Source: a virus
UHGV virus genome: UHGV-0268593
DNA length: 36,393 nt
Strand: one strand, 5' to 3'
Shown piece by piece: positions 2,321 through 34,865 of this stretch. The notes below the pieces were generated by a model, which did no database searches, was not told where the DNA came from, and was given only the letters and a program-made list of their open reading frames with translations. The stretch's first letter is position 1. Every line of letters starts with the position of its first letter. The position numbers were made by a program, and so were the translations under genes.

Positions 2321-5300
2321 ATTTTCGGCACCGCTCCTTTCGGCAGTTCCCGGTCTAACCGGGTCGTACCCAGGTAAACCGGTCTGCTCTGCATCTTCTT
2401 AACACCGGCAGCCGTTGCATTCCCTACTTTCGTTGCCAGTTGCGTCAGATCCTCGTCTGAAATCCTCATAGTACTCTGTACGCTCTGCTGATTTATGATC
2501 TTTTCTGTACTCTGCAAGGCAAATGAGCTGGTGATCCTATTTGTATTCACCGCCATCGCCTCCCGCACCCGATTGGACAGATCTGCCATGTCCAGCGAAT
2601 TCAGTGCCGAACGTGCCATTCGTTCTGAAGCCTTTTTTACAGCCGGAATCTGATCGTCAATTCCAAGTGCGAATCCCTTGCCAGAAAAACGCCCCGCTCC
2701 TCGCATTACTTTTGATGGTGAATGAATCCCCAGTACGCTCTTGACTTTTTCATAAGCCGTACTTGCCATCTCTGCCGCTTTTGATGCAGCTTTTCCAACC
2801 CAGTCACCAATTCCACGAACAAATCCTGATCCGAAATTAGACCCGGTATCGTATGAATTAATACTTCCTGCTCCGCTTTTTGCACTGGTAGCAAGGGATG
2901 TTCCTTTTGCCCTTGCATCCCCTGCCTTACTTCCGACAGCAGAAGAATATGCTGTTCCGAACGATTTTCCAGTACTTCCCGGATTCACCGATCCAGCTCC
3001 ACGCTTCGCACTGTCTGCCAGTCCTTTTCCTCTTGTCAACAGCTTCCCGACAAAACTGCCGATCGCTGTATCGAAAAATCTTCCAAATGCACTACCGGTC
3101 GAGGTCGGGTCAACAGCCCCTGCTCCTCTTTTTGCAGCTTCTGCATTCGCTTTTCCCTGTTGTTCCGAAACTGACAGCTGTGATCCGATTCCTTCATTAA
3201 AAGAAGTCATCAACCCTGATCCGATTTCTTTCGTATCTCCTACTGATCCCCGCATAGCATCAAGCAGCCGGGAGATCACGCCAGTACCGGAAGAAGTAAG
3301 TTCCTCCTGACCTTCGTTCAATCCTTCAACCGCTCCCGGCCAGACATACGAAAAGATTTCTTTCACCGCACGGGACGGACTGTGGACATCAAGAGTCGTG
3401 ATCAGGCTTTGCAGGAATGCATCCGCACCTTGCTCTGCCGGATCAACCAGCGTTTCAAACCCTTCCAGTCCTTCCAAAGCTCCATACCACGCCTGTGACC
3501 ACGTCTCTTTAGTTTTTTCGTCCAGTCCTGAAAATCCTTTCAGAAAGCTTTCCATTCCTGCCTGCGCCTCAGTGCTCAGCGTACCGGATATCTTTGCCTG
3601 TGCCATAGCCGCTACAAGTTTTGCAGAGCCATCCTTACCGGCATTTTTTAATATTTCCTTGATCTGATCTGCACCAGTTCCGACCTGATTCAGGGCAATC
3701 CCCATTGCCTCCGTCAAGCCATCTTTGGTCTGCTGGGTTAATTGCATTGCTCCATCTTTTTCAGCGGAAAAAATACTGGTAAGCTTATCTGTCATTGCAC
3801 TGGCCTGCTCGATGGCTGCTTCTGATCCAATCTCCAAAGTAGTGTCAATTCCGCTCTGAATTTCTGCCAGTGCAGAGTTGATCGTATCAGTATTTCCACT
3901 CATTGCTGCCTCTGTCAGGCTACTGTAATCGGAGATGACTTTCTGATTATCCTGCATCGCCGCATTGGCAGCGTCAAAGTTTGCCTGCAATTCTTCCAGT
4001 CCACTACCTGCTTTTTCAAGCTTTTCTTTCAGTTCTCCGTACTTTTCAGTATTCCGCACAATAGCTTCGCCCTGGGCATCATACCCCATTACTACAGCAT
4101 TTGCCGATTCTGCTTCAAGTTCCTTCTCAAGTTCTGCGATCTTGCTTTTTTTGCTACTAAGCTTTTCGTAAGCATCTGCCAGTTCAGCCGCCTTGTCTGC
4201 CTGCTCTTTCATTGCATCCGCATAGTCCGACTTCATGGAGTCAAGAACGGCTTCTGCTTTTTTTGCCGCAATCAGATCGTAGACAGATTTCTTCAAGTCG
4301 CTGTAGTTCTGAATCAGTCCATCGTTCAGGCTGATTTCTACACCTAACGCACTGGACAGCTCACCTGTGATATACGCTGCCCTTGCCTCCTGTCCTGCCT
4401 GCACTTTTCCATTCGCATCAACAATCTTTTGCAGTTCTCCCCACAATGCTTCTGCATTGTCGATCTCAGATGTGGCTGCCTGAATATTTTTCTGCCTTGC
4501 CGCTGCCTTTTCGTTAATACTGTCAATTTCATCCTGTGCTGCCTGGATATTTTCCTTTTGTGCCTCCGTCAGCCGATCTGTTGATGCCGCTTCATCATCC
4601 GTCAGCAGGATTGCTGTTCCGATACAGGCTGCCAGTGCCGCCCCTGCGGTAACAAGCAGACCGATTGGATTTGATGCCATAGCAGCGTTCAGGGCTGTCT
4701 GTGCTTTCGTCCACAGTCCGGTCAGGGCAGTCGTGACTCCGATCTGACCGCTATAGACTCCCATCAGCGTTTCCCGGAGTGTCAGACCGCCGTTAGATGC
4801 TACAAGCTGTAAAGCATTTGCTTTTTCCATCGCAGTCAGCCTTGCCAGGGCTGCTGCATTCAGATTCGTCTGATTCTTGCTGACCTTGGTGGCTGTGCTG
4901 TACAGCTTCAATGCTGTCGTAGCTCCAGCCACCAATGGAGCAATCACACCTAGATTTCCACTCAGCAGGTCGATGGCTTTTGTGACCGGTGGAAGTGCCA
5001 CTTTCGCAAGCGTTCCTGCCGCTTTGGTCAGATTCTTGAATACAGATACTGCTTTTTTCCCGGCTGATTTCAATCCACCTGAATTGAGCGACTCTGACAA
5101 GGCTTCTACTGCATCCTGTGCCGGTTTCTTTAATTCTGCCGGCAGAAGGCTTGCAAGTCCTCCTGCTATTGATTCTGCTACTTCTGCTGCGGCTGTCAGA
5201 AGTCTTCCTTTATTTCCTGACACGCCGGAAATGAAAGATTCGATGAAATCAACCGCTGTATCCACCATTTCCGGTGCGTGGGATGCTGCATCCACGGCAA

Positions 5301-6459
5301 AATCTGCAAAGATGTTTCCGGCCTCTTTTACAGCCGCTTTCAGACCACCATTTTTAAAGGCGTCCGTCATATCGCCTACAGCCTGCGTGGCTTGCACGGC
5401 TGTATTTTTCAGTGGCGTATCAAGAGATTCATAAATTTCAATGCCGAGACCCTCAAGACTGGATTTCAAAATCGTAACCGCACCTTCAAGGTTGTCCTGC
5501 ATTGTCTCTGACATATTCGCAGCCGTTCCGTCAGCGTTCTTTATGGCAGATGCAAGCTTGTCAAAATCACCCTGCGATGCATTTACGATAGCCAGCAATC
5601 CTGACATAGCCTCCTGCCCTCCAATTGCCGCTGCCGCCGCTGCCTGCTCATCCGCGGGCAACCCCTGAAGGGAATCCCGCATATTCTCCATGACTTGCAT
5701 CAGGGTTTTCATGCTGCCATCTGCGTTTTTCATGGATATATCATATTTGTCCAATGCCGCTGATGCTTCTTTTGGCGGCTTGGCCAGTCTGGTCAGCACA
5801 CTCCTGAGGGCAGTACCTGCCTGGGTTCCCTTGATTCCCGAGTTTGCCATCAGTCCGATAGCCTGAGACAGGTCTTCAATGTTATACCCCAACGCTCCTG
5901 CTACTGGTGCAGCGTACTTAAATGTTTCACCCATCATAGAGACGTTGGTGTTCGCATTACTGGATGCTGCCGCAAGGACATTTGCGAAATGGGTGGAGTC
6001 CGATGCAGCCAGTCCCATCGCTGTCAGTGCATCTGTAACGATATCAGAAGTCGTTGCAAGATCTTCACCGGATGCCGCCGCAAGATCCATGATCCCCTCA
6101 ATACCGGACAGCATATCCTGTGTCTTCCATCCCGCCATAGCCATGTATTCCATAGCCTGAGCAGATTCAGAGGCACTGAACTTCGTCTTTGCCCCCATTT
6201 CCTTTGCCTTATCAGTCAGTTTCTGCAGTTCGTCCCCTGTAGCTCCTGAAATGGCTGATACTTTCGACATCTCAGATTCGAAGCTGGCACCGACCTTTAC
6301 AGCTGCCGCTGCTGCACCTCCAAGAGCAGTGGACACTGCACTCACCGCTGTTGCTACGGTTTTCAGACCGGTTTTCGCAAGCTTTCCCATTTTGCTTAAA
6401 TCTTTTTCAATACCGGATGTGTCCAGTCCGGTATCAATAATCACTTTTCCGTCTGCCAA
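2317..6459 (-). CDS. Tail tape measure protein
   Basis: 1380 aa, Ala/Gly/Ser-rich with long helical stretches, placed between the tail chaperones and Dit. Internal tandem repeats sit near the C-terminus. Confidence 0.9.
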   Translation of the reverse strand: MADGKVIIDTGLDTSGIEKDLSKMGKLAKTGLKTVATAVSAVSTALGGAAAAAVKVGASFESEMSKVSAISGATGDELQKLTDKAKEMGAKTKFSASESAQAMEYMAMAGWKTQDMLSGIEGIMDLAAASGEDLATTSDIVTDALTAMGLAASDSTHFANVLAAASSNANTNVSMMGETFKYAAPVAGALGYNIEDLSQAIGLMANSGIKGTQAGTALRSVLTRLAKPPKEASAALDKYDISMKNADGSMKTLMQVMENMRDSLQGLPADEQAAAAAAIGGQEAMSGLLAIVNASQGDFDKLASAIKNADGTAANMSETMQDNLEGAVTILKSSLEGLGIEIYESLDTPLKNTAVQATQAVGDMTDAFKNGGLKAAVKEAGNIFADFAVDAASHAPEMVDTAVDFIESFISGVSGNKGRLLTAAAEVAESIAGGLASLLPAELKKPAQDAVEALSESLNSGGLKSAGKKAVSVFKNLTKAAGTLAKVALPPVTKAIDLLSGNLGVIAPLVAGATTALKLYSTATKVSKNQTNLNAAALARLTAMEKANALQLVASNGGLTLRETLMGVYSGQIGVTTALTGLWTKAQTALNAAMASNPIGLLVTAGAALAACIGTAILLTDDEAASTDRLTEAQKENIQAAQDEIDSINEKAAARQKNIQAATSEIDNAEALWGELQKIVDANGKVQAGQEARAAYITGELSSALGVEISLNDGLIQNYSDLKKSVYDLIAAKKAEAVLDSMKSDYADAMKEQADKAAELADAYEKLSSKKSKIAELEKELEAESANAVVMGYDAQGEAIVRNTEKYGELKEKLEKAGSGLEELQANFDAANAAMQDNQKVISDYSSLTEAAMSGNTDTINSALAEIQSGIDTTLEIGSEAAIEQASAMTDKLTSIFSAEKDGAMQLTQQTKDGLTEAMGIALNQVGTGADQIKEILKNAGKDGSAKLVAAMAQAKISGTLSTEAQAGMESFLKGFSGLDEKTKETWSQAWYGALEGLEGFETLVDPAEQGADAFLQSLITTLDVHSPSRAVKEIFSYVWPGAVEGLNEGQEELTSSGTGVISRLLDAMRGSVGDTKEIGSGLMTSFNEGIGSQLSVSEQQGKANAEAAKRGAGAVDPTSTGSAFGRFFDTAIGSFVGKLLTRGKGLADSAKRGAGSVNPGSTGKSFGTAYSSAVGSKAGDARAKGTSLATSAKSGAGSINSYDTGSNFGSGFVRGIGDWVGKAASKAAEMASTAYEKVKSVLGIHSPSKVMRGAGRFSGKGFALGIDDQIPAVKKASERMARSALNSLDMADLSNRVREAMAVNTNRITSSFALQSTEKIINQQSVQSTMRISDEDLTQLATKVGNATAAGVKKMQSRPVYLGTTRLDRELPKGAVPKI
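2765..3145 (-). repeat. Three tandem ~42-aa repeats inside the tape measure gene
   Basis: The protein shows AKRGAGAVDPTSTGSAFG.., AKRGAGSVNPGSTGKSFG.. and AKSGAGSINSYDTGSNFG... The DNA shows a recurring gctcc(g/a)c.ttttgc about every 126 nt. Coordinates are approximate. Confidence 0.6.
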
Positions 6460-6464
6460 TCATC

Positions 6465-7082
6465 TCACCATCCTTTTAGCAGCTCGCTTACATCTTCGCC
6501 CCGTTCCAGTGCCTCCTCCAAAGCTTTCAATTTCGCCTTATCCGGTGCTTTTTCTGTATCTAGTCCGTAATATTCCTGCATCGCCTGATAGAATCTCTTT
6601 TGATCCTTTGATAAACCTTTTGCCGAGAGATCCAGTGTCCGGTACTCCATGATCTTCTGGAATCTTGTATCTCCTCCGAGATTTTCCAGTAAAATCATAA
6701 ATTTCCACCAGTGCATCTCCTCTGTCTGCAGGTCGATTCCATACTGCTGGATAAATGCCGCATAGATCAGATCGGCATCTACCTCAAAATCAAACGCCTG
6801 CTTGCTGTTGATCCCGGCGATCTTCCGTGGAAAATGCTTACGCTCCGGCTCTCTCCCACAGGAGAAAAACCACAGCATCTTGTCAAAATGTTCTTCTGTA
6901 TACCAGGTGTACTGACCGTAAAAAAGCCTGAGCAATCTCGTCATTTCGTCCTCAGTCAGCTCTCTTCCTGCATCCTGAAGGATTTTCTGACAACGTAAAA
7001 CGGTGCGGAAATCCCAATGGATCGGACATTCCACACCGCTAATGGTCAGACTTACCGGAAAAGGCTCTGTAAGGGAACTCAT
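6465..7082 (-). CDS. Tail assembly protein (Phage_Gp15-like, second chaperone-type gene)
   Basis: A 205-aa ORF sits between the major tail gene and TMP, with an ATGA overlap to the upstream chaperone ORF. Confidence 0.55.
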   Translation of the reverse strand: MSSLTEPFPVSLTISGVECPIHWDFRTVLRCQKILQDAGRELTEDEMTRLLRLFYGQYTWYTEEHFDKMLWFFSCGREPERKHFPRKIAGINSKQAFDFEVDADLIYAAFIQQYGIDLQTEEMHWWKFMILLENLGGDTRFQKIMEYRTLDLSAKGLSKDQKRFYQAMQEYYGLDTEKAPDKAKLKALEEALERGEDVSELLKGW

Positions 7083-7405
7083 TCAGCCCCTTTCATTCCC
7101 AGTCGCTCTTTTACTGCTCTATACCTCTCACACTGTCGGATCTGTTCGTTAAGCAGTGCTTCATAAGCTTCCAGACATAAGAGGTGATCGTGACCCGTTC
7201 CGCATACTTTTTCCCCTGTGCCTTCCCCAAAAGTCACATCGAAAAGGTGCTTAACTGTATCACACTGCTGTCTGATCGCATCTGGTTCCGTTCCTGTATC
7301 TCCAATCTTTGAGATTTCTTCCAGTTCTTTCAGATATGCCTTTTTACCCTCCTCAAAATCCGGGTCAAAAAATGAAAAATTTAATGTAACTCCGTTAATC
7401 TGCAT
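7079..7405 (-). CDS. Tail assembly chaperone
   Basis: Start moved to the internal ATG at 7405 (MQINGVTLNF...), which follows a GGAGGAG SD. The ORF is small, acidic, and lies just after the major tail gene. Confidence 0.5.
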   Translation of the reverse strand: MQINGVTLNFSFFDPDFEEGKKAYLKELEEISKIGDTGTEPDAIRQQCDTVKHLFDVTFGEGTGEKVCGTGHDHLLCLEAYEALLNEQIRQCERYRAVKERLGMKGAE

Positions 7406-7492
7406 TGTCTTTCTCCTCCATCTGTTCAAATAAATCTTTTTCTGCTTCGTCCGCTACAGCCTCACCAACTGAAGCATTATCAGTGAGGGAGA

Positions 7493-8023
7493 TTATTTTC
7501 CCTCTGTAAATGCCTTGGTTGCTGTGTTGAACGTACCCTTTACCCAGTCAGTCTTGCCAAGCAGGTTGCCGGATCCCTGAATTTCACCATCGTTATCCTT
7601 AAATTCAGAAATCTCAACCGCAACTTTTCTGCGTTTTGCTTCATAAGTTCCGGCTGAGCCGCTCACCGGTTTGTCCAGGTATACCTTCACGTAAAATGTA
7701 TCTGCCTCCACTCCGGTCTTTTCGTTCTCGCCGATCTCCGAAATGTAAGCGATTGCCGGTTCACTCTGGATCAGATCGAACTCAAGCGGTGCTGTCCATT
7801 CATAACCGCCAATGCTCTGTGTTGCACTTTTCTGATTGACGTATCTCTTTGACGTAGTCTGTGCGGACGGTGAATCATCCAACTGGGTCACACCAATTCC
7901 GAGAAGCTCATATTTCGGGGAATCAGATCCTCCTGTAACATCAATGTAATCTGCACGCTGGTAACGCTGCGTTACACCAGTGTCTTTTGCTGCTTCAAAA
8001 ATCTGTAAATTCATTCTTTTCAT
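7493..8023 (-). CDS. Major tail protein
   Basis: Internal ATG at 8023 with a GGAGGT SD. The N-terminus is MKRMNLQIF-EA, and the position before the chaperones matches a major tail gene. Confidence 0.65.
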   Translation of the reverse strand: MKRMNLQIFEAAKDTGVTQRYQRADYIDVTGGSDSPKYELLGIGVTQLDDSPSAQTTSKRYVNQKSATQSIGGYEWTAPLEFDLIQSEPAIAYISEIGENEKTGVEADTFYVKVYLDKPVSGSAGTYEAKRRKVAVEISEFKDNDGEIQGSGNLLGKTDWVKGTFNTATKAFTEGK

Positions 8024-8027
8024 TGCC

Positions 8028-8456
8028 TTACCTCCGTTTGTAATATAAAAAGCGGCACTGAATGCGGTACTGGCATTTCGTGCCTTCATTATCGTATAAA
8101 TAACCGCCTGTCGTAGCCTGAATAGACTTACTCGTGAGATTTCCCGACAGTGCCGGAAGTCTTCCCTGCTCCGTACATTCATCCAGCCAGTCAGAGAATT
8201 TTTCGTAAAATTCCGCCGTGTCCTTGTTGCTTTCTTCTCCGTACCATTCCCGGGAACAAAGAGAAAATACCATCTGCCGGATCGTATCTCCGTTCGTATA
8301 CCGTCTGACAATCGGGTCTGCCGGAGCAAGCTCCAGACTATACGCTGTTGCATCCTCTCCCAGCAGATCCACGTTCACGATCGGGAACATCTGTTCAAAC
8401 TCTTCCAGGAACGGACACCCAGCTATAAATTCAGCGACGTTTGTTGCTACGCTCAT
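8028..8456 (-). CDS. Tail terminator/completion-type protein
   Basis: ATG at 8456 overlaps the upstream stop (ATGA) and follows a GGAGGG SD. A GTG at 8519 is an alternative start. Confidence 0.4.
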   Translation of the reverse strand: MSVATNVAEFIAGCPFLEEFEQMFPIVNVDLLGEDATAYSLELAPADPIVRRYTNGDTIRQMVFSLCSREWYGEESNKDTAEFYEKFSDWLDECTEQGRLPALSGNLTSKSIQATTGGYLYDNEGTKCQYRIQCRFLYYKRR

Positions 8457-28445: not shown

Positions 28446-28526
28446 GTTTCTCACCTCCTTTAAATGATGTGCAGATACCTCTGTGTCGTTCCATGCAGTA
28501 TCTGATTTTTCTGCAGTCTTTGCAGG

Positions 28527-28775
28527 TCATATGACCTCCCTCCCTATTCGTTCCTTTTCCTCTTCCGGGATCTTAAGAACTTTCAGAATCTCTCTCAGCT
28601 CGCCCAGTCTGATGTCTTCCGGCACACTAAATCTTTGGTACAGTGTGCTTTTCGGGATTCCTGTCAGCTTGGAAAGCTTTTCTACGCTGACACCCTCCAT
28701 CACTTTTCCTGACTGGATGATGGCGATCAGCGTCCTGTTCTGACGCTCCCGGTCTGAGAGCTTTAATTTAGGCAT
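28527..28775 (-). CDS. Cro-like HTH regulator (XRE family)
   Basis: 82 aa with an HTH, a GAGGTGA SD, and divergent orientation to the cI-like gene. Confidence 0.6.
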   Translation of the reverse strand: MPKLKLSDRERQNRTLIAIIQSGKVMEGVSVEKLSKLTGIPKSTLYQRFSVPEDIRLGELREILKVLKIPEEEKERIGREVI

Positions 28776-28879
28776 TCTATCACCTCGCTTCTCTTGCTTT
28801 CAGCACTTCTGCACTCCCCTTTACTAAATACACGAAAAAGCTCACTTCCATAACTTCTTCTCTCAATGAAGAACTCGCA

Positions 28880-29041
28880 TCAACCAAGCCAGTCATACAA
28901 CGCGAACCCAGTGAAAGCTAATGCTACGAACAGAACCCACACAGGATATATCTTGTTGTCGGGTTCTATTTTTTTCATGACCCGTACACAAAGCCCACCA
29001 AGTACCCATACTCCCAGTGTAATTAAAAGTTTGTAGTACAT
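28880..29041 (-). CDS. Small two-helix membrane protein (53 aa)
   Basis: ATG start with a GAGGTGAGG SD and two hydrophobic stretches. It is the first gene on the Cro side. Confidence 0.4.
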   Translation of the reverse strand: MYYKLLITLGVWVLGGLCVRVMKKIEPDNKIYPVWVLFVALAFTGFALYDWLG

Positions 29042-29301
29042 CTTCCTCACCTCGCTTTCTCTTCCTTATCCATCGCTTCTCTTACTTTCAGTATCTCTGC
29101 ATTGTTCCTGCTGCCTCAAGAGCAAGGTATTAGCATCCCTTGTCAACAGAATAATGTCCGGCAAATCAATTTGTTCCAAAATTGCCACCATATTGTTAAT
29201 TTCCTGTCGTTTCTTTTTTTCAAGATCCAACATGTAACATCTCCCTTCGCTATAATATTGGTTGCGGACTGCAAATCGCCTCTTTGAAAGGAGGTGATAT
29301 A

Positions 29302-29436
29302 TTGAAAATCCATAAAATTGTAAAATCGGATAAGCTCATCCGAAAATATGAAAAGTTCGGATATAAGCTTCTGTATTTTACTTACACGGGTAATGACCTC
29401 TCCACAATGTCAGCCCATTTAGAAAAGGAACTTTAA
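29302..29436 (+). CDS. Small hypothetical protein (44 aa)
   Basis: TTG start 6-7 nt after AAAGGAGGTGA. A TATAAT sits at 29251-29256 upstream. Confidence 0.3.
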   Translation: MKIHKIVKSDKLIRKYEKFGYKLLYFTYTGNDLSTMSAHLEKEL

Positions 29437-29551
29437 TGTTCCGGGTAACTATCAACCTTTCTCCAATGCAGTCCGCTGCTTTCTTAAGCAACTGTTTGTT
29501 GCTTGTGAGATTATAATATATCACAAAATCAATATTGTCAATCTCTTTTTC

Positions 29552-29589
29552 ATTGTTTATGAGATATTTTATTGTTTATGAGATATTTT
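29552..29589. repeat. Perfect 19-bp tandem direct repeat (attgtttatgagatatttt x2) abutting the cI promoter
   Basis: Exact copies at 29552-29570 and 29571-29589. This is operator-like. Confidence 0.6.
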
Positions 29590-29592
29590 GTA

Positions 29593-29621
29593 TTGACGAA
29601 AAATGTAACGCTGTGTATAAT
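29593..29621 (+). promoter_or_regulatory. Sigma-A type promoter for the cI-like gene
   Basis: TTGACG at 29593-29598, a 17-nt spacer, and TATAAT at 29616-29621. Confidence 0.6.
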
Positions 29622-29649
29622 GTAAATCAAGAAAGGCGGTGAGCATTTT

Positions 29650-30036
29650 TTGAAAGATCGTTTAAAAAAATTACGCAAAGAATTAGATTTAACACAACAA
29701 GCTTTTGCAGATAAAATAGGAATGAAGCAAAACACAATTGCTCAATATGAAATGGGTAGAACAACCCCTAGTGACGCAATTATATTTTCTATATGTAGAG
29801 AATTTGGAGTTAATGAGAAGTGGTTAAGATCTGGTGAAGGCGAAATGTTTGAGGAATTGACTAATCAGCAGAAAATTCTGAAATACACAGCATTACTGCT
29901 CAAAGATAAAGATTCGGCTGTAGCAGACGCTATTCAAACATTAATTGTTACTTATGAGCAACTGGATGATACAAGTAAAGCAGTATTGGAAAAGATTGCT
30001 AAGCAATATATTGATAACTTAAAAAAGAGCCAGTAA
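29650..30036 (+). CDS. cI-like repressor (XRE HTH)
   Basis: 128 aa with an N-terminal HTH (LTQQAFADKIGMKQNTIAQYE). The TTG start follows a GGCGGTGAG SD. No S24 peptidase domain is present. Confidence 0.7.
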   Translation: MKDRLKKLRKELDLTQQAFADKIGMKQNTIAQYEMGRTTPSDAIIFSICREFGVNEKWLRSGEGEMFEELTNQQKILKYTALLLKDKDSAVADAIQTLIVTYEQLDDTSKAVLEKIAKQYIDNLKKSQ

Positions 30037-30053
30037 GCACTGACTCTCCATGA

Positions 30054-30176
30054 CTACTTCTCAATGTAACTTCGGATAAATACAAGTACTTCTCGTATTT
30101 TTTCCGGAGATTGTTTTCGAAGCAATTCAACAATGAAGTCGATATCTTGTTGTTTTGTACAATTATCTTTTTCCAT
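30054..30176 (-). CDS. Small ORF (40 aa) antisense to the lysogeny module
   Basis: ATG 8 nt after AACGGAGGT, co-directional with the 65-aa HTH gene. Confidence 0.35.
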   Translation of the reverse strand: MEKDNCTKQQDIDFIVELLRKQSPEKIREVLVFIRSYIEK

Positions 30177-30346
30177 ATGTATGACCTCCGTTCTCGTGCA
30201 GAACGCTTGTTCGAAATTCCTTAATCAGATAATACTACATTTCCTGTGGTAAATCAATAGGAAAATCGAACGCACGTTCCGTTTGTTTGTATCTACATTA
30301 ATAGAACAATCGAGAACGGAAATACATACGGCATTTTAATCAATCG

Positions 30347-30360
30347 TCCGGTATACCGGA
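30347..30360. promoter_or_regulatory. Perfect 14-bp palindrome TCCGGTATACCGGA
   Basis: It lies 4 nt from the stop of the 65-aa HTH gene. Confidence 0.35.
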
Positions 30361-30363
30361 CAC

Positions 30364-30561
30364 TTATTCCGAATCAGGATCAAAAAGGTCTGTGATATCA
30401 CATTTCAGACCCGCAGCAAGCTTTCCGAGCGTCCTGATTCGTGGATTGGAGTCTTCACGCATACATTCCTGTATGGTAGAACGTGGAACTCCCGACATTA
30501 GGGAAAGCTGACGTACAGATAGATTTTTTTCATACATAATTTTTGCTAATACTATTTTCAT
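30364..30561 (-). CDS. Small XRE-family HTH regulator
   Basis: 65 aa (LSVRQLSLMSGVPRSTIQECMRE), divergent from the DUF4041 gene. Confidence 0.65.
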   Translation of the reverse strand: MKIVLAKIMYEKNLSVRQLSLMSGVPRSTIQECMREDSNPRIRTLGKLAAGLKCDITDLFDPDSE

Positions 30562-30604
30562 GGAAATAGTATGCTAATTTTACGAATAAATTATTCATGG
30601 AAAT
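30549..30604. promoter_or_regulatory. Operator-like repeats in the divergent HTH/DUF4041 intergenic region
   Basis: A palindrome ATACTATTT-tcatgg-AAATAGTAT (30549-30572) is centred on the HTH start codon. TTCATGGAAAT occurs at 30557-30567 and again at 30594-30604. Confidence 0.4.
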
Positions 30605-30692
30605 TCCTAAATATAACCCCTCGTGGGATTATATAAATGAATAAGTGGTGTTATTCATAAAGAACGGTTCTTATTAACAAAGGAGAAAACAA

Positions 30693-32285
30693 ATGGGTAT
30701 AGGGGATATTTTTAAAATCAAGCAATTCAAAGAACGGATTGCCAGTCTTGAAACGGAGAATCAAACGCTTTCACAAAATAATGCCGACTTACAGGCAGCT
30801 ACTACTGAATTAAGAGGAAAGCTTTCTGAAATTGGTGGATTTGACTACTATAAAGTAAAATCCATGACCGAACAGATGGAAAAAGAGTACGCTGTCAAAC
30901 AAAGAGATCTGAGTATAGAGTATGATGTAAAAGTAGATACTCTGAAAAAGGAATACGAAAGAAAGCAGGCAGAAGCAGAAAAAGGCTTACGAGAGCAACT
31001 TGTCCAGCTTGAAAGAATGATTTCTGACCGCACAGACAAATCGCAGTCATTACAGGAAAAAATTGCTGAAGAAATGCTTCAGGAAAGTAAACTTGCTAAA
31101 CAGATCAAGACCCAAACCAATAAACTCGGACGATCAAAAGAGTTGGTAAAAGCAATCAATTACAGTTTGGACAATTTCTTTAATTATGATCCTGCAATCA
31201 GTTCTTTAAAATTTAGCGAAAAAGATTTAACCGATTTGGAGGAAATCAGTCCTTCCGTTATCCTAAAACTCCATTGCATGGATGTAAAAGATCTCCGCAA
31301 AGCCTACCGTCAAAATGATAAGCAAATCAATGATCTTTTAGCAAAATATTCTGCCCGGTATACTACTAAAGCGAATCAGGCAATTTATAAACTTATGGTC
31401 ATTGCTCTTAGAGCAGAACTTCAAAATATCCTGTATAACCTTAAATTTGAAAAGCTTGAAAAATCTATTGATGATATCAAAGATGTAACTCATAAATATC
31501 TTGAGATTGCAGGAAATGGAAATCAGAGCATCGCAGGAACTCTTACCAAATTTATTGGAGAAATAGAGTATTTGTTTATTAATGCAGCAAAGATTGAATA
31601 TAATTACTACGTTAAAAAAGAACAGGCTCGTCAGGAACAACTTGCTATCCGTGAGCAAATGAGACAGGAAGCCGAGGAACGTAAAGCACTGGAAGCTGAA
31701 CGTAAAAAAATAGAACAGGAAGAATCAAAATACAATTCCGAAATTGAAAAGCTGAGAACCCAACTCACCAGTGCTAAAGACGAGGAGGTTGAAAAATTAA
31801 ACGCAAGAATCCTTGCACTACAGGCTCAACTTGCTGACGTTGCTATAAAGAAAGACGAAATTTCTACTCTTGCCAATGGAAAAGCTGGTAACGTGTACGT
31901 TATCAGTAATCTTGGATCTTTTGGCGAAAATGTATTTAAGATTGGAATGACCCGAAGACTCAATCCACAGGATCGAGTAGATGAACTTGGTAATGCATCT
32001 GTTCCATTCCGTTTTGACGTACATAGCTTTATTTTTTCTGATGATGCAGTTGGTCTTGAAAACAAACTCCATACTATCCTGACTGACAAACGTGTAAATA
32101 AAGTAAATATGAGAAAAGAATTTTTCAATGTATCACTTGATGAACTGGAACAACTTGTTACAGAAATAGAACCTACAGCAGAGTTCAACAGGACTATGGC
32201 TGCTGAAGAGTTCAGACAATCACAATCAACAGACAGCATTTATTCGTCCGATTATACTTATAGTGATGATGAAGACGATGAATAA
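30693..32285 (+). CDS. DUF4041 coiled-coil protein with a C-terminal T5orf172 (GIY-YIG-like) domain
   Basis: 530 aa with a long coiled-coil N-terminus. The C-terminus carries VYVISN..FKIGMTRR..ASVPF.FDVH..IF.DDA...RVNKVN.RKEFF. AGGAGA SD. The gene is AT-rich relative to its flanks. Confidence 0.8.
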   Translation: MGIGDIFKIKQFKERIASLETENQTLSQNNADLQAATTELRGKLSEIGGFDYYKVKSMTEQMEKEYAVKQRDLSIEYDVKVDTLKKEYERKQAEAEKGLREQLVQLERMISDRTDKSQSLQEKIAEEMLQESKLAKQIKTQTNKLGRSKELVKAINYSLDNFFNYDPAISSLKFSEKDLTDLEEISPSVILKLHCMDVKDLRKAYRQNDKQINDLLAKYSARYTTKANQAIYKLMVIALRAELQNILYNLKFEKLEKSIDDIKDVTHKYLEIAGNGNQSIAGTLTKFIGEIEYLFINAAKIEYNYYVKKEQARQEQLAIREQMRQEAEERKALEAERKKIEQEESKYNSEIEKLRTQLTSAKDEEVEKLNARILALQAQLADVAIKKDEISTLANGKAGNVYVISNLGSFGENVFKIGMTRRLNPQDRVDELGNASVPFRFDVHSFIFSDDAVGLENKLHTILTDKRVNKVNMRKEFFNVSLDELEQLVTEIEPTAEFNRTMAAEEFRQSQSTDSIYSSDYTYSDDEDDE

Positions 32286-32465
32286 TTAAAAAACCGCCCC
32301 TTCGCCAAAAGGAGCGGCACTGGAAGCACACGCCAATGTGCTTATCGAATACCTCCGAAGAGATACACTTCAAATCCAATGAATATTGTATCATCTTCGG
32401 ACAGCCACTGCAAGTGGAACACACGTTCCTCGCTGGCTGTTATTTTTATACTAGGAGATGATAAT

Positions 32466-33581
32466 ATGGCTACAGCTAAAAAGTTACCTTCAGGATCTTG
32501 GAGGTGCTTAGTTTTTTCGCACTATGAAAACCTGTTCAATGAGGACGGAAGTCCTATGATTGACGAGAAGACCGGAAAGCAGAAGCGGAAAAGGATTTAT
32601 GAATCGTTTACCAGTGACTTACAGGGAAGACGTGGAAAGCGGGATGCAGAAGCTCAGGCGGCTCAGTTCCTTGCAGAGAAAGACCGGAAAAAACGCCCTG
32701 AGAACTGGACAGTGAAGGAAGCTTTTGAAAATTACATAAAGTTAAAGGATCATGTGCTGTCCGAGACTACTCTCCGTGGTTATGAGACGATCACCCGGAA
32801 TCAGATCGGACAGATAGCAGATATCAGCCTCCGCAAGCTCTCGCAGGAAGACGTACAGAGCTGGATCAACATTCTGTCGGTAAAGTTATCGCCTAAGACC
32901 GTAAAGAACGCTTACGGGCTGTTTACAGCGGTCATGCGGATGTATCTGCCGGATATGCACTTCCATACCACTCTACCATCTGCAAAGACCTATGAGGGGT
33001 ATGTGCCATCCGATCAGGACATCACGGATCTGATCTGCTATATCCGGGGAACTGAACTGGAAAAAGCAGTGCTTCTCGCAGCGTTTGGAAGTCTCAGGCG
33101 TGGAGAAGTCTTCGGGCTGACGAAAGAGGATATCAAGGGGAACTCCATACGGATCAGAGAGACGAAAGTCCGGGGACGTAGTGGGATCATCAAAAAAGGT
33201 CCTAAGACACAGAGCAGCTACCGATACATTATCATGCCGGAATTTGTGATCCGAAAATTTGACGATATCGAAAGCGGTCCGCTTGTCAGGATGCACCCGG
33301 AAGATCTCTCTAAAAACTTTAAAAAAGTGCTTCGTTCTGCTGGGATTCCTGAATTTCGATACCATGATCTCAGACATTATACTGCATCCATTATGCACGC
33401 CCTGAACATTCCGGATCAGTACATCATGAAGCGTGGTGGATGGAAGTCTGACAGAGTCCTGAAAAGGGTATACCGTGGCACGATTGCACCGGAAGAAGAG
33501 AGATTTACAGACCGAATCAACGAGCATTTTACGGAAATGATGCAACACGCCATGCAACACGATAAGCGAAAAGCCTTATAA
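32466..33581 (+). CDS. int: Tyrosine integrase
   Basis: Contains RYHDLRHY, the catalytic R..H..R..Y context. ATG at 32466 follows an AGGAGA SD. The track also shows an in-frame upstream ATG at 32379 without an SD. Confidence 0.9.
   Translation: MATAKKLPSGSWRCLVFSHYENLFNEDGSPMIDEKTGKQKRKRIYESFTSDLQGRRGKRDAEAQAAQFLAEKDRKKRPENWTVKEAFENYIKLKDHVLSETTLRGYETITRNQIGQIADISLRKLSQEDVQSWINILSVKLSPKTVKNAYGLFTAVMRMYLPDMHFHTTLPSAKTYEGYVPSDQDITDLICYIRGTELEKAVLLAAFGSLRRGEVFGLTKEDIKGNSIRIRETKVRGRSGIIKKGPKTQSSYRYIIMPEFVIRKFDDIESGPLVRMHPEDLSKNFKKVLRSAGIPEFRYHDLRHYTASIMHALNIPDQYIMKRGGWKSDRVLKRVYRGTIAPEEERFTDRINEHFTEMMQHAMQHDKRKAL
33540..33563 (+). repeat. Two tandem ATGCAACACG arm-type-like repeats in the integrase 3' end (candidate P-arm sites)
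   Basis: ATGCAACACG at 33540 and at 33552. They encode MQHA and MQHD. Confidence 0.45.
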
Positions 33582-33607
33582 ATACAGCATTTTCCTGTAG
33601 GTTTTCT

Positions 33608-33631
33608 GGGTTCGATTCCCGCCAGGTCCAC
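33608..33631 (+). other. attP-like core that copies the 3' end of a tRNA/tmRNA gene
   Basis: GGGTTCGATTCCCGCCAGGTCCAC holds a T-loop, the T-stem 3' half, and a 7-nt acceptor 3' strand plus discriminator. No D-arm or anticodon arm lies upstream. Confidence 0.55.
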
Positions 33632-33660
33632 TTTTTCAAAAAGTGCGTAATTTCAAGGAT

Positions 33661-33704
33661 AGCGGAGAAAGCCTTTAAAATAAGGGTTCTCCGCTTTTTC
33701 TTTT
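33661..33704 (+). terminator. Rho-independent terminator downstream of int and the att core
   Basis: Stem agcggagaa / ttctccgct (9 bp), followed by tttttctttt. Confidence 0.65.
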
Positions 33705-33754
33705 ACTGAAATGATTCTATTATTTCGGACTTTTTAAGCGTATTTTACAATCTT

Positions 33755-33790
33755 ATGCAACACGAAATACGCAAAAATGCAACACGAAAA
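33755..33790 (+). repeat. Two further ATGCAACACGAAA repeats (candidate P'-arm sites)
   Basis: ATGCAACACGAAATA at 33755 and ATGCAACACGAAAAC at 33777, in the same orientation as the copies inside int. Confidence 0.45.
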
Positions 33791-33809
33791 CAGATGATAC
33801 AATATTCAG

Positions 33810-33831
33810 CCCCGGAGTTACTGCTCCGGGG
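33810..33831 (-). terminator. GC-rich hairpin just after the endolysin stop
   Basis: CCCCGGAG-ttactg-CTCCGGGG, with a weak U-tract. Confidence 0.35.
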
Positions 33832-33836
33832 TGGTC

Positions 33837-34865
33837 TTATTTCACTCTCAGTTTCTGACCAACATAAATCTTATTCGGATTTTTGATGCCGTTCAGCGTT
33901 GCAATCTTCTGATAGGTTGTACCGTATTTTGCTGCGATCTTTGACAGGGTATCACCTGATTTCACCGTATAGTACACAGCAGACGATCCTGAGCCACTTC
34001 CGTTGATTACTTTCTGCACTTCTGCATACCGTTTTCCGAGTACCGTCTTTCTTGTATCTCCATTTCCATATTTTCCTGCCTTTGTTTCCGATGCAAGCGT
34101 GGATGCTGATGCAGTAGCGATATGGTTAATAAAGGTCTGCACCTCGGAGTAACGACTGCCAAGTTTCGTCTTACGTGTATCGCCATCACCATACTTGCCT
34201 GACAGCGTATCTACCACAAGCTGCAATGTTGTTCCAATCGGCACGACTGCACTGGGACTGGATGCAGGCTGTGATGGCTTGCTGATCCCTGTGATTTCTG
34301 CCGGAAAATCACGATAGCAATAATTAACATCTACCCGTCCACTAATGCCCGGAACACTTCCATCGGAGCTGTACTGCCACATATCAGCTTTCATCCCAAG
34401 TGTACTGTTATAGCGTGCAATCCACAGTGGATATCTTGTCCCCAGCGAACTTAAGTAATTATCCCACCAGGATTTATTACAATACACTCCACACTTATAT
34501 CCTGCTGCTTCGATCAGTGCAGCAAATTTCTTCATACGGTCAACCGCACCTGTCTGTGTTCCTGATTCTTCCAGGTCATAAAATACCGGATACGACAGTT
34601 TATATCCTTTCACCAGTCTCAGCACATGTCTTGCCTCTGACTCTGCCTGTGCAGTTGTCTTTGCATACGAATAAATATAAACACCAAACGGAATCCCCAG
34701 TCTGGTACATTCATTTGCATTTCTCTTCCACTGCTTATCATCCTGGGAAGTCAGATCATCCCCGTAACCACACCGAATGATCGCATGATATCCTGCTGCC
34801 TTAACTTTCTCCCAGTTAATAGTTCCCTGATGATACGATATGTCTACTACATTAATTGTTGCCAT
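33837..34865 (-). CDS. Endolysin: GH25 muramidase with two CW_7-like repeats and a C-terminal LysM
   Basis: The N-terminus has the GH25 pattern ([12 protein letters not shown]...G). Two GKYG(N/D)GDTRKT.LG.RY.EVQ repeats and a LysM ([17 protein letters not shown]) follow. Confidence 0.85.

Follow-up and report, generated by a model that had tools for sequence, protein, structure and literature searches.

A SNIPE-family nuclease without a transmembrane segment, carried in the lysogeny region of a gut Lachnospiraceae phage

Layout of the lysogeny region

We analysed the viral genome UHGV-0268593 (36,393 nucleotides; the whole stretch is hereafter called the window), which derives from a temperate siphovirus-type phage whose host is a gut Lachnospiraceae. 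No match to positions 28500-34000 was found among isolated phage genomes by megablast, and the window is thus not a known cultured phage. The region between the repressor and the integrase contains the following features.

29650-30036, plus strand: cI-like repressor of 128 aa with an XRE HTH (Pfam HTH_3, E 2e-16; RstR-like in NCBIfam)
30054-30176, minus strand: 40-aa ORF that lies behind two LexA (Cheo) boxes (30201-30212 and 30268-30279) and has a strong Shine-Dalgarno sequence
30364-30561, minus strand: HTH65, a 65-aa XRE-type HTH gene (Pfam HTH_3; co-occurrence analysis)
30549-30572, no strand: palindrome over the HTH65 start codon (ATACTATTTTCA and TGGAAATAGTAT; 11/12 complementary, perfect as 9-6-9)
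30594-30604, no strand: second exact copy of the 11-mer TTCATGGAAAT
about 30611-32310, no strand: exchanged cassette (blastn)
30693-32285, plus strand: PD-lambda-1/SNIPE-family gene of 530 aa, without a transmembrane segment (ORF, PADLOC, PHROG)
30693-31175, plus strand: N-terminal coiled-coil region, aa 1-161 (AlphaFold2 helices, pLDDT up to 95)
31185-31622, plus strand: middle domain, aa ~165-310 (AlphaFold2; conserved within its own clade)
31623-31880, plus strand: long alpha-helical linker, aa ~311-396 (hhalign; AlphaFold2)
31887-32225, plus strand: GIY-YIG/T5orf172 nuclease domain, aa 399-511 (Pfam, conserved residues)
32293-32318, minus strand: G+C-rich hairpin directly 3' of the stop codon of the 530-aa gene (terminator scan)
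32466-33581, plus strand: tyrosine integrase (Pfam Phage_integrase and Phage_int_SAM_3)

An earlier note, made from the sequence without database searches, had described the 530-aa ORF and the divergent 65-aa HTH gene as lying between a cI-like repressor and an integrase, and both the genes and their position proved correct. The 530-aa ORF is preceded by a Shine-Dalgarno sequence (AAGGAG, 30680-30685), and the intergenic region that separates it from HTH65 (30562-30692) measures 131 bp, one less than the 132 bp given before. Searches of Pfam and NCBIfam detected no peptidase domain in the cI-like repressor, next to which two divergent promoter-like sites are found (29593-29621, plus strand; 29541-29513, minus strand). 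The hairpin behind the 530-aa gene has a T-run on the minus strand only, and Rfam and tRNA scans of the region returned nothing significant.

A single-gene cassette in a variable cargo slot

At 36.3% G+C, the 530-aa gene lies below both the integrase (47.1%) and the window as a whole (43.5%), and its GC3 is 29% against 53% for the integrase. The earlier impression that it is richer in A+T than the integrase was therefore accurate, and the cI gene nearby is just as rich in A+T (32.6% G+C). Evidence for separate acquisition also came from blastn, in which four related loci (L002-L005) were 97-98% identical to the window from exactly position 30611 and unrelated to the left of it. On the other side, identity stopped at 32310 in L002 and L004 and continued further in L003 and L005. 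The cassette so delimited holds a single gene, together with its 82 bp leader and most of the 3' hairpin.

The 530-aa gene is missing from sister phages whose integrase is 98-99% identical, and its place is taken there by a gene for Ltp (Pfam E 5e-28) or for another lipoprotein; among sister phages, an added HicAB pair also occurs in this slot between immunity module and integrase. Across related loci the neighbours of the nuclease gene also vary: upstream there may be ImmA, HTH65 or another gene, and downstream other morons or a recombinase of the tyrosine or serine type, as befits a gene with no obligatory partner. These observations support the view that the 530-aa gene was separately acquired, as the earlier note had suggested, and is swappable cargo (a moron) in the lysogeny region.

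Membership in the PD-lambda-1/SNIPE family

The 530-aa protein matched the PADLOC PD-Lambda-1 profile PDLC03976 over almost its whole length (E 1.7e-82; protein residues 57-515 against profile positions 38-474 of 491). The N-terminal 399 aa alone still matched at E 1e-12, and the E. coli reference scored E 2e-198. The protein also matched PHROG 1847 (E 7e-100), and BLASTP gave 47% identity over aa 319-510 to a protein of E. coli phage PhiR26_1 annotated as PD-lambda-1. When a profile built from its own clade was compared with an E. coli-clade profile by hhalign, aa 299-510 aligned with a probability of 100% (E 5e-57).

PD-lambda-1 was validated in E. coli by selection (Vassallo et al. 2022, PMC9519451) and has since been dissected mechanistically under the name SNIPE (Saxton et al. 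2026, PMC13190303). A further member, EU01 of Streptococcus thermophilus, works as a single gene from its native promoter and gives >3 log protection against several siphovirus genera (bioRxiv 10.1101/2024.10.22.618286). The 530-aa protein is thus a member, without a transmembrane (TM) helix, of an already characterised family, and the earlier statement that such proteins have no demonstrated function no longer holds.

Another reading of the mosaic distribution is that of homing: the gene would be a selfish free-standing GIY-YIG homing endonuclease or a T5orf172/Bro-like DNA-binding phage regulator without a role in defence. The cassette boundaries are sharp, the phage backbones around them are otherwise different, and T5orf172 and GIY-YIG domains are known from homing endonucleases and phage DNA-binding proteins. 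The match to a defence-system profile, however, runs well beyond the nuclease domain. Moreover, the gene always lies in the lysogeny module beside a recombinase, in a slot that may alternatively hold Ltp or HicAB, and never inside or beside a conserved target gene, unlike the genes of homing endonucleases. We regard this reading as extremely improbable.

The nuclease domain

The C-terminal domain was recognised by Pfam as T5orf172 (residues 400-492, E 5e-15) and as MUG113 (E 1e-18), in keeping with the T5orf172-type domain first recognised by eye. Its invariant residues comprise Y402, K416-I417-G418, R421/R422, H444, E456, N469/N472 and E476-F477-F478. Those of GIY-YIG catalytic type (Y402, R421/R422, E456 and N469/N472) are invariant in both the clade of the 530-aa protein and the E. 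coli clade (82 sequences), and the second Tyr of the GIY-YIG motif is replaced by K416 (KIG), as in T5orf172. Catalytic roles were assigned from the sequence alignment and secondary-structure position, not from superposition; on this basis E456 corresponds to E414 in the E. coli homologue. The domain has the beta-beta-alpha-beta-alpha core fold of GIY-YIG nucleases.

Foldseek with the domain model found nothing significant in the PDB (the best matches were to SLX1, E 0.33), and the best PDB hits by sequence were OXA beta-lactamases at chance level (E 0.12). Against viral structures, the full-length model recovered T5orf172 domains and one homologue wrongly labelled 'Helicase' (E 1.7e-10), and what else came back was mostly coiled-coil noise. 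Taken with the family assignment, the nuclease domain supports the proposal that this is a defence gene with a nuclease-type effector.

N-terminal region, middle domain and linker

In an AlphaFold2 model of moderate confidence (pLDDT 72 at full length, 76 for the domain), two helices (aa 4-46 and 52-161) come first, followed by a helical middle domain (about 199-275), a long helix (278-396) and the nuclease domain. The roughly 370-aa N-terminal coiled coil proposed earlier was therefore no more than roughly right, and resolves in the model into separate helices plus the helical middle domain. At the N terminus lies a conserved motif, MGxGDIF, whose M1, D5, I6 and F7 do not vary across 30 clade members. 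The coiled coil that follows gave a sub-threshold DivIC/FtsB-like match (E 0.002). A DivIVA-like N terminus, which is common in published homologues without a TM helix, was considered and rejected, as no DivIVA match was obtained and the DivIC and ZapB coiled-coil matches were sub-threshold. We likewise discount the source annotations 'chromosome segregation ATPase', 'SbcCD ATPase subunit' and 'helicase' as coiled-coil artefacts, no ATPase family having been detected. The C-terminal tail is acidic, with a net charge of -9 over aa 496-530.

No TM segment was detected in the 530-aa protein, whose highest Kyte-Doolittle hydrophobicity over 19 residues is 0.98 (3.37 in the E. coli protein), or in its 120 closest homologues, in which this maximum never exceeds 1.6. 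Among relatives with the same middle domain, N-terminal TM helices occur in 32 of 59 representative clusters and in 37 of 163 loci, and TM-bearing and TM-less proteins that share the middle and nuclease domains interleave at 55-69% identity. In the SNIPE family at large, about 59% of proteins have one TM helix, 7% two and 34% none, and alternative membrane targeting has been proposed for the last group (PMC13190303).

The earlier note had called the 530-aa product a DUF4041 protein, an assignment that Pfam did not return: PF13250 was not detected in the 530-aa protein even at E<=10. Precomputed PF13250 annotations are present in 120/120 homologues of the E. coli clade and in 0/120 of the closest homologues of our protein, an iterated HMM seeded with the DUF4041 region of the E. 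coli clade at no point picked up the latter clade, and the PADLOC PD-Lambda-1 profile does not match the middle domain alone. These results may reflect divergence of the middle domain. The domain is strongly conserved inside its own clade, and hhalign weakly paired aa 229-268 with aa 188-227 of the E. coli PD-lambda-1 homologue (probability 44%, E 2.4e-4, 40 columns); such weak matches to DUF4041 regions keep a consistent register (15-20 bits). The middle domain may therefore be a divergent counterpart of DUF4041 in SNIPE with only weak profile similarity. The linker, for its part, is homologous, by the profile alignment, to the helix that precedes the nuclease in SNIPE.

HTH65 and the immunity module

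The 65-aa product of HTH65 matched Pfam HTH_3 (E 1.8e-8). The palindrome described earlier is indeed centred on its start codon, and the duplicated motif is also real: TTCATGGAAAT has exactly two copies in the window, the first of which (30557-30567) lies inside the palindrome. A 9-nt perfect inverted repeat arose in 50 of 2000 dinucleotide shuffles of positions 30500-30700 and occurs only twice in the whole window; an 11-mer repeat like TTCATGGAAAT arose in 15 of 2000 shuffles. We predict that the palindrome is probably the HTH65 operator. Related loci have comparable elements, such as a 19-nt inverted repeat on either side of the HTH65 homologue's start codon in L070 and a degenerate palindrome (9/12) at the 95% identical HTH65 of L168, which adjoins an Ltp gene.

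It had been suggested that the nuclease gene has its own divergent HTH regulator, and a regulated two-gene cassette, with HTH65 as a dedicated regulator or antitoxin-like partner that is inherited and acts together with the nuclease gene, would fit some features of the locus. The two genes are divergent and 131 bp apart with the palindrome and the repeated 11-mer between them, TTGCTA-18-TAGTAT, a weak promoter-like site pointing rightward, overlaps the palindrome, and a second one (TTCCTA-17-GATTAT) abuts the second 11-mer. In six related loci a divergent HTH65 homologue is adjacent, next to nuclease genes 61-100% identical to the window gene.

Comparison of loci argues against this arrangement. 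The exchanged cassette includes neither HTH65 nor the palindrome nor either 11-mer, all of which lie to the left of its start at 30611. In L002-L005, nuclease genes 97-99% identical to ours occur without HTH65, directly after an XRE repressor and M78/ImmA protease pair (ImmR/ImmA-type) on the same strand; because nuclease genes 99% identical to ours exist without it, an antitoxin role of HTH65 was rejected. Co-occurrence is not conserved: a divergent HTH65 homologue is adjacent in those six of 152 related loci, whereas an ImmA-type protease gene stands immediately upstream on the same strand in at least 61. Four loci (L029, L070, L076 and L133) have an HTH65 homologue 1.1-2.1 kb from the nuclease gene, with an ORF identified between the two in L029 and L070/L076. 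Conversely, HTH65 homologues (52-95% identical) and cI homologues are found beside Ltp or lipoprotein cargo without a SNIPE-like gene. A conserved partnership of HTH65 with the nuclease gene is thus largely refuted, and we give the two-gene cassette as a whole little credence.

HTH65 belongs instead to a three-gene immunity module, made up of cI, the LexA-boxed 40-aa ORF and HTH65, that is swapped as a unit. The 40-aa ORF is a candidate SOS-controlled antirepressor within this module; ORFs of the same size occupy the same position in L166, L168 and L172, and L070 has one of 58 aa. Most likely HTH65 controls its own expression through the palindrome at its start codon, and any control that it exerts on transcription of the nuclease gene would be a local, incidental effect.

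Proposed mode of action

Considering the locus as a whole, the explanation that we find probable is a SNIPE-family single-protein defence nuclease, carried as a moron in a variable slot, with HTH65 as a separate gene of the immunity module. SNIPE cleaves phage DNA during injection, acting as a direct defence that infected cells survive; an induced prophage is unaffected, and the E414A substitution abolishes defence (PMC13190303). By homology, the lysogen would make the SNIPE-like protein constitutively, and the protein would rest auto-inhibited close to the cell envelope. Upon genome injection by a different long-tailed phage, the incoming DNA or the tape-measure complex might be engaged by the middle domain and linker, and the C-terminal GIY-YIG domain, with E456 as catalytic Glu, would then cut the DNA. 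The cell would survive, and induction of the resident prophage would be unaffected. The MGxGDIF motif and the coiled coil of ~160 aa presumably stand in for the anchor or adaptor. That the middle domain binds DNA or the tape measure is an extrapolation, considering that this domain is not recognised as DUF4041 and gives only a weak profile-profile signal.

The lack of a TM helix bears on how resident DNA would be spared. SNIPE without its TM helix is toxic in E. coli and cuts the host chromosome (PMC13190303), and for this reason the spatial self/non-self logic of SNIPE does not transfer unchanged to a protein that naturally has no such helix. The same two facts are consistent with abortive infection, which the earlier note had entertained: TM-less proteins would be cytoplasmic nucleases unleashed by infection on host and phage DNA alike, killing the cell, and the acidic C-terminal tail could be auto-inhibitory. 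That tail is, however, also present on a TM-bearing relative in L070, the interleaving of TM-bearing and TM-less proteins argues for one shared mode of action, and the characterised family member defends directly, with alternative membrane targeting proposed for its TM-less homologues (PMC13190303). We therefore judge killing of the infected cell improbable, and prefer direct defence by a SNIPE-family nuclease.

It is conceivable, if rather unlikely, that the anchor-less, Pfam-DUF4041-negative clade, of which gut Lachnospiraceae prophages contain many members, discriminates incoming from resident DNA by a route other than the membrane tethering of SNIPE. The MGxGDIF N terminus and coiled coil might, for instance, bring the protein to the tape-measure complex itself or to a partner in the divisome or envelope; alternatively, injection might free a cytoplasmic form from auto-inhibition. 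If true, this would amount to a mechanistic variation, in Gram-positive bacteria, on DNA cleavage coupled to injection.

Significance and comparison with known systems

The main value of these results is corrective: the gene does not encode an uncharacterised DUF protein, the mechanism of its family was published in 2026, and its HTH neighbour is a component of the immunity module. They also indicate that SNIPE-like nucleases are widely carried by temperate phages of gut Lachnospiraceae, in a cargo slot beside the recombinase gene, and that Pfam-based annotation misses the putative DUF4041-like domain across the whole clade of the 530-aa protein. How anchor-less SNIPE homologues avoid host DNA is a question left by the SNIPE paper (PMC13190303), and the close TM-bearing and TM-less variants found here, with their divergent middle domain, form a natural set that can be used to ask it.

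With SNIPE itself, the 530-aa protein shares the single-gene format, frequent carriage on prophages, the catalytic Glu and the order of parts, namely an N-terminal targeting region, coiled coil, middle domain, long helix and C-terminal GIY-YIG/T5orf172 nuclease. It differs in having no TM helix, in an N-terminal 300 aa that is unrelated to SNIPE in sequence, in a middle domain with weak profile similarity only, and in its acidic C-terminal tail. Since the host is a Gram-positive Lachnospiraceae, the ManYZ-type adaptor logic of SNIPE should not be assumed. EU01 of S. thermophilus is a Firmicute member of the same PADLOC family, likened to our protein by this assignment; it is chromosomal and not shown to be prophage cargo, whereas the 530-aa gene is carried by a prophage. 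The GIY-YIG domains of SLX1, I-TevI and UvrC are more distant, with YIG where our protein has the KIG typical of T5orf172/MUG113, no sequence-level similarity and a wholly different surrounding architecture.

Ltp (Pfam PF07553) is comparable in position and in the step at which it acts. The prototype of this superinfection-exclusion lipoprotein comes from S. thermophilus phage TP-J34. In L168 its gene fills the same slot, between an HTH65-containing immunity module and a 99% identical integrase, and like the SNIPE-like gene it is a prophage-encoded block acting at DNA injection. Ltp is, however, an unrelated extracellular lipoprotein that blocks injection without a nuclease.

Family assignment and nuclease domain

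The 530-aa product of the nuclease gene belongs to the PD-lambda-1/SNIPE family and has a nuclease fold with catalytic-type residues. It matched the PADLOC PD-Lambda-1 profile over nearly its full length (E 1.7e-82; residues 57–515 against profile positions 38–474 of 491) as well as PHROG 1847, a group of unknown function (E 7e-100). Residues 400–492 were matched by T5orf172 (E 5e-15) and MUG113 (E 1e-18) in Pfam. Of the two domains named in the earlier note, T5orf172 was therefore recovered, whereas DUF4041 gave no Pfam match, even at E<=10. Our SNIPE reference was the protein annotated as PD-lambda-1 in Escherichia phage PhiR26_1 (L083; 500 aa, transmembrane (TM) helix at residues 6–24). The window protein shares 47% identity with it over residues 319–510, and E456 (GLENKLH) aligned to its E414 (SLEKKLH). 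When the window clade (the window protein and its closest homologues) was compared profile to profile with the E. coli clade (relatives of the PhiR26_1 protein), residues 299–510, i.e., the linker helix and nuclease, aligned at 100% probability. Y402, K416, G418, R421, R422, H444, E456, N469, N472, and E476-F477-F478 were invariant in all 82 sequences drawn from the two clades; catalytic-type residues of the kind looked for in the C-terminal domain (Y402, R421/R422, E456) are present, and the proposal of a defence nuclease is supported by the PADLOC match, T5orf172, and the conserved E456.

PD-lambda-1 was discovered by functional selection in E. coli (PMC9519451). A mechanistic study gave it its new name, SNIPE, reported ManYZ and siphovirus tape-measure proteins as its partners, and found that defence requires the DUF4041 domain and residue E414 (PMC13190303). 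A homologue from S. thermophilus gave >3 log protection (bioRxiv 10.1101/2024.10.22.618286). Given this published work on E. coli SNIPE and the S. thermophilus homologue, the description of the family as having no demonstrated function is out of date.

Gene layout and local motifs

ORF and Pfam analysis bore out the genes read from the sequence in the earlier note, whose sequence observation as a whole was confirmed and whose interpretation held up in part.

Features around the nuclease gene
29650–30036, + strand: cI-like XRE repressor, 128 aa (cI128; Pfam), to the left of HTH65 and the nuclease gene
30364–30561, − strand: divergent XRE HTH gene, 65 aa (HTH65; ORF), 131-bp spacer to the nuclease gene
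30549–30572: palindrome ATACTATTTTCA/TGGAAATAGTAT on the HTH65 start codon
30693–32285, + strand: nuclease gene, 530 aa (ORF), AAGGAG ribosome-binding site at 30680–30685
32466–33581, + strand: tyrosine integrase (Pfam), to the right of the nuclease gene

The 11-mer TTCATGGAAAT occurs exactly twice window-wide, at 30557 and 30594. Both motifs are uncommon by chance: when the local 200 nt were dinucleotide-shuffled 2000 times, such a palindrome arose in 50 shuffles and such a repeat in 15. The nuclease gene has a GC content of 36.3% (GC3 29%), below both the integrase (47.1%, GC3 53%) and the window (43.5%); the cI128 gene is as AT-rich as the adjacent nuclease gene.

Several further elements were observed. 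The 5′ leader of the nuclease gene holds a perfect 6-1-6 palindrome, AAGAAC-G-GTTCTT (30660–30672, within the exchanged cassette described below), and AAAGAACGG recurs at 30729 inside the coding sequence. Past the stop codon lies a hairpin (32293–32318) with a T-run confined to the minus strand, so that it would terminate antisense (leftward) transcripts and not that of the nuclease gene; the right-hand limit of the cassette, 32310, is inside this hairpin. At 33608–33620, 27 nt past the integrase stop, lies a 13-nt match to the tmRNA 3′ end that falls short of significance (Rfam E 0.24) and is a possible hint of an attP core in ssrA.

Independent assortment of the nuclease gene and HTH65

We retrieved 80 related viral and 80 genomic loci, with Lachnospiraceae as hosts (Mediterraneibacter closest, 74% identity). 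The nuclease gene DNA in four of these loci (L002–L005) is 97–99% identical to the window, and this identity begins exactly at 30611 and either ends at 32310 or runs into the integrase region. To the left of 30611, these loci instead encode an XRE repressor and an M78/ImmA-type protease, transcribed in the same direction as the nuclease gene, and HTH65, cI128, and the 40-aa ORF (30054–30176, − strand) were found in none of them. The exchanged unit therefore includes neither HTH65 nor the palindrome nor either 11-mer. Among the 152 loci with sufficient upstream sequence, an adjacent divergent HTH65 homologue was present in six, and four had a homologue 1.1–2.1 kb away, with another ORF in the gap in two of those locus types; an ImmA-like gene directly upstream on the same strand was found in at least 61.

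The converse arrangement was seen in six phages without the nuclease gene (L166–L171), which share the early region and an integrase that is 98–99% identical. Five of the six retain HTH65 (52–95% identical) and a cI homologue, and the two with ORFs listed (L166, L168) also have 40-aa ORFs. Each gene thus occurs without the other, and their assortment is independent whichever of the two is followed. One type of immunity module ends with HTH65, which is not, as had been proposed, the nuclease gene's own regulator. A degenerate palindrome retained at the HTH65 start in L168, and an inverted repeat flanking the start of the homologue in L070, are consistent with HTH65 autoregulation. Weak rightward promoter-like sites (consensus-level matches only), one overlapping the palindrome and one abutting the second 11-mer, make it possible that HTH65 incidentally controls whatever cargo sits rightward. 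In L174 (1221–1709), the interval from the 40-aa ORF to the nuclease gene contains no called 65-aa HTH gene; its 519-aa nuclease protein is the same as in L172 and L173, and HTH65 may have been lost within this single lineage.

A cargo slot between immunity module and integrase

The slot after the immunity module accommodates several different cargos, the nuclease gene among them. In L168 it holds a superinfection-exclusion lipoprotein gene of the Ltp family (3808–4803; Pfam E 5e-28) and in L166 a 305-aa lipoprotein-like ORF (3896–4813); L002 has an added HicA/HicB pair between the nuclease and integrase genes (7747–8378). Our comparisons show single-gene mobility and a lysogeny-region position, and the cassette (30611–32310), together with sister phages bearing other cargo in its place, supports the earlier reading of a moron. 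The L002 copy (6001–7593), otherwise 99% identical, has an in-frame stop following codon 91 that divides it into ORFs of 91 and 422 aa, apparently through pseudogenisation or faulty assembly.

LexA boxes

The window contains four exact Firmicute LexA (Cheo) boxes, GAAC-N4-GTTC, versus 0.41 expected by chance. Two of them (30201–30212 and 30268–30279) flank a minus-strand promoter-like site, TTGATT-17-TATTAT (30257–30229), upstream of the 40-aa ORF, which has a GGAGG Shine-Dalgarno. Because cI128 is without a peptidase domain, the 40-aa ORF is a candidate small antirepressor under SOS control. Between cI and HTH65 homologues, 40-aa ORFs also occur in L166, L168, and L172, and a 58-aa ORF in L070. 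A third box (32417–32428) lies inside a ~70-nt block just 5′ of the integrase start (32382–32452) that is 83–90% conserved across many of the related loci, among them L003, whose integrase differs. Exactly one box between the nuclease and recombinase genes was found in ~35/80 viral loci, and the box may place integrase or excision under SOS control. The fourth (GAACATCTGTTC, 8385–8396) lies among the structural genes, on the genome's minus-strand side, and may be due to chance.

Comparison with SNIPE and proposed mechanism

No TM segment was detected in the window protein (maximum 19-residue hydropathy 0.98, versus 3.37 for the E. coli protein) or among its 120 closest homologues. This falls inside the known family range; 34% of published SNIPE homologues are without a TM helix, some also without any N-terminal globular domain (PMC13190303). 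Relatives sharing the window middle domain, such as the 532-aa protein of L070, have N-terminal TM helices in 32/59 representative clusters (37/163 loci). In the TM-less clade, M1, D5, I6, and F7 of an N-terminal MGxGDIF motif (aa 1–7; 30693–30713) are invariant and the next ~130 residues are variable. The C-terminal tail (aa 496–530; 32178–32282) is strongly acidic (net charge −9), as it is in TM-bearing relatives.

The middle domain (~aa 165–310) is not recognisable as DUF4041 at the sequence level. PF13250 was annotated in 120/120 E. coli-clade homologues versus 0/120 of the window clade, and an iterated HMM of the DUF4041 region recruited 48/150 representatives but never the window clade. 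A weak match in consistent register links aa 229–268 to 188–227 of the E. coli homologue (hhalign probability 44%; 15–20 bits). The full-length model (pLDDT 72) begins with coiled-coil helices (4–46, 52–161), which lead through a helical middle domain to a long helix (278–396) and the nuclease.

By analogy with the characterised homologue, the nuclease would be expressed from the lysogen and would cleave incoming siphovirus DNA at injection; the infected cell would survive, and the enzyme would be compatible with the resident prophage. SNIPE leaves an induced resident prophage unaffected and acts by direct defence rather than abortive infection (PMC13190303), which argues against the abortive mode proposed earlier and leaves it a minority possibility for the window protein. 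SNIPE becomes toxic in E. coli once its TM helix is removed (PMC13190303); an anchor-less member might spare the chromosome by reaching the envelope in another way, with its conserved N-terminus and coiled coil, or by being auto-inhibited. Set against E. coli SNIPE, with its TM helix and DUF4041, this gene of an already known kind, PD-lambda-1/SNIPE, shows two modest twists: its product has no TM anchor, and Pfam misses the middle domain.
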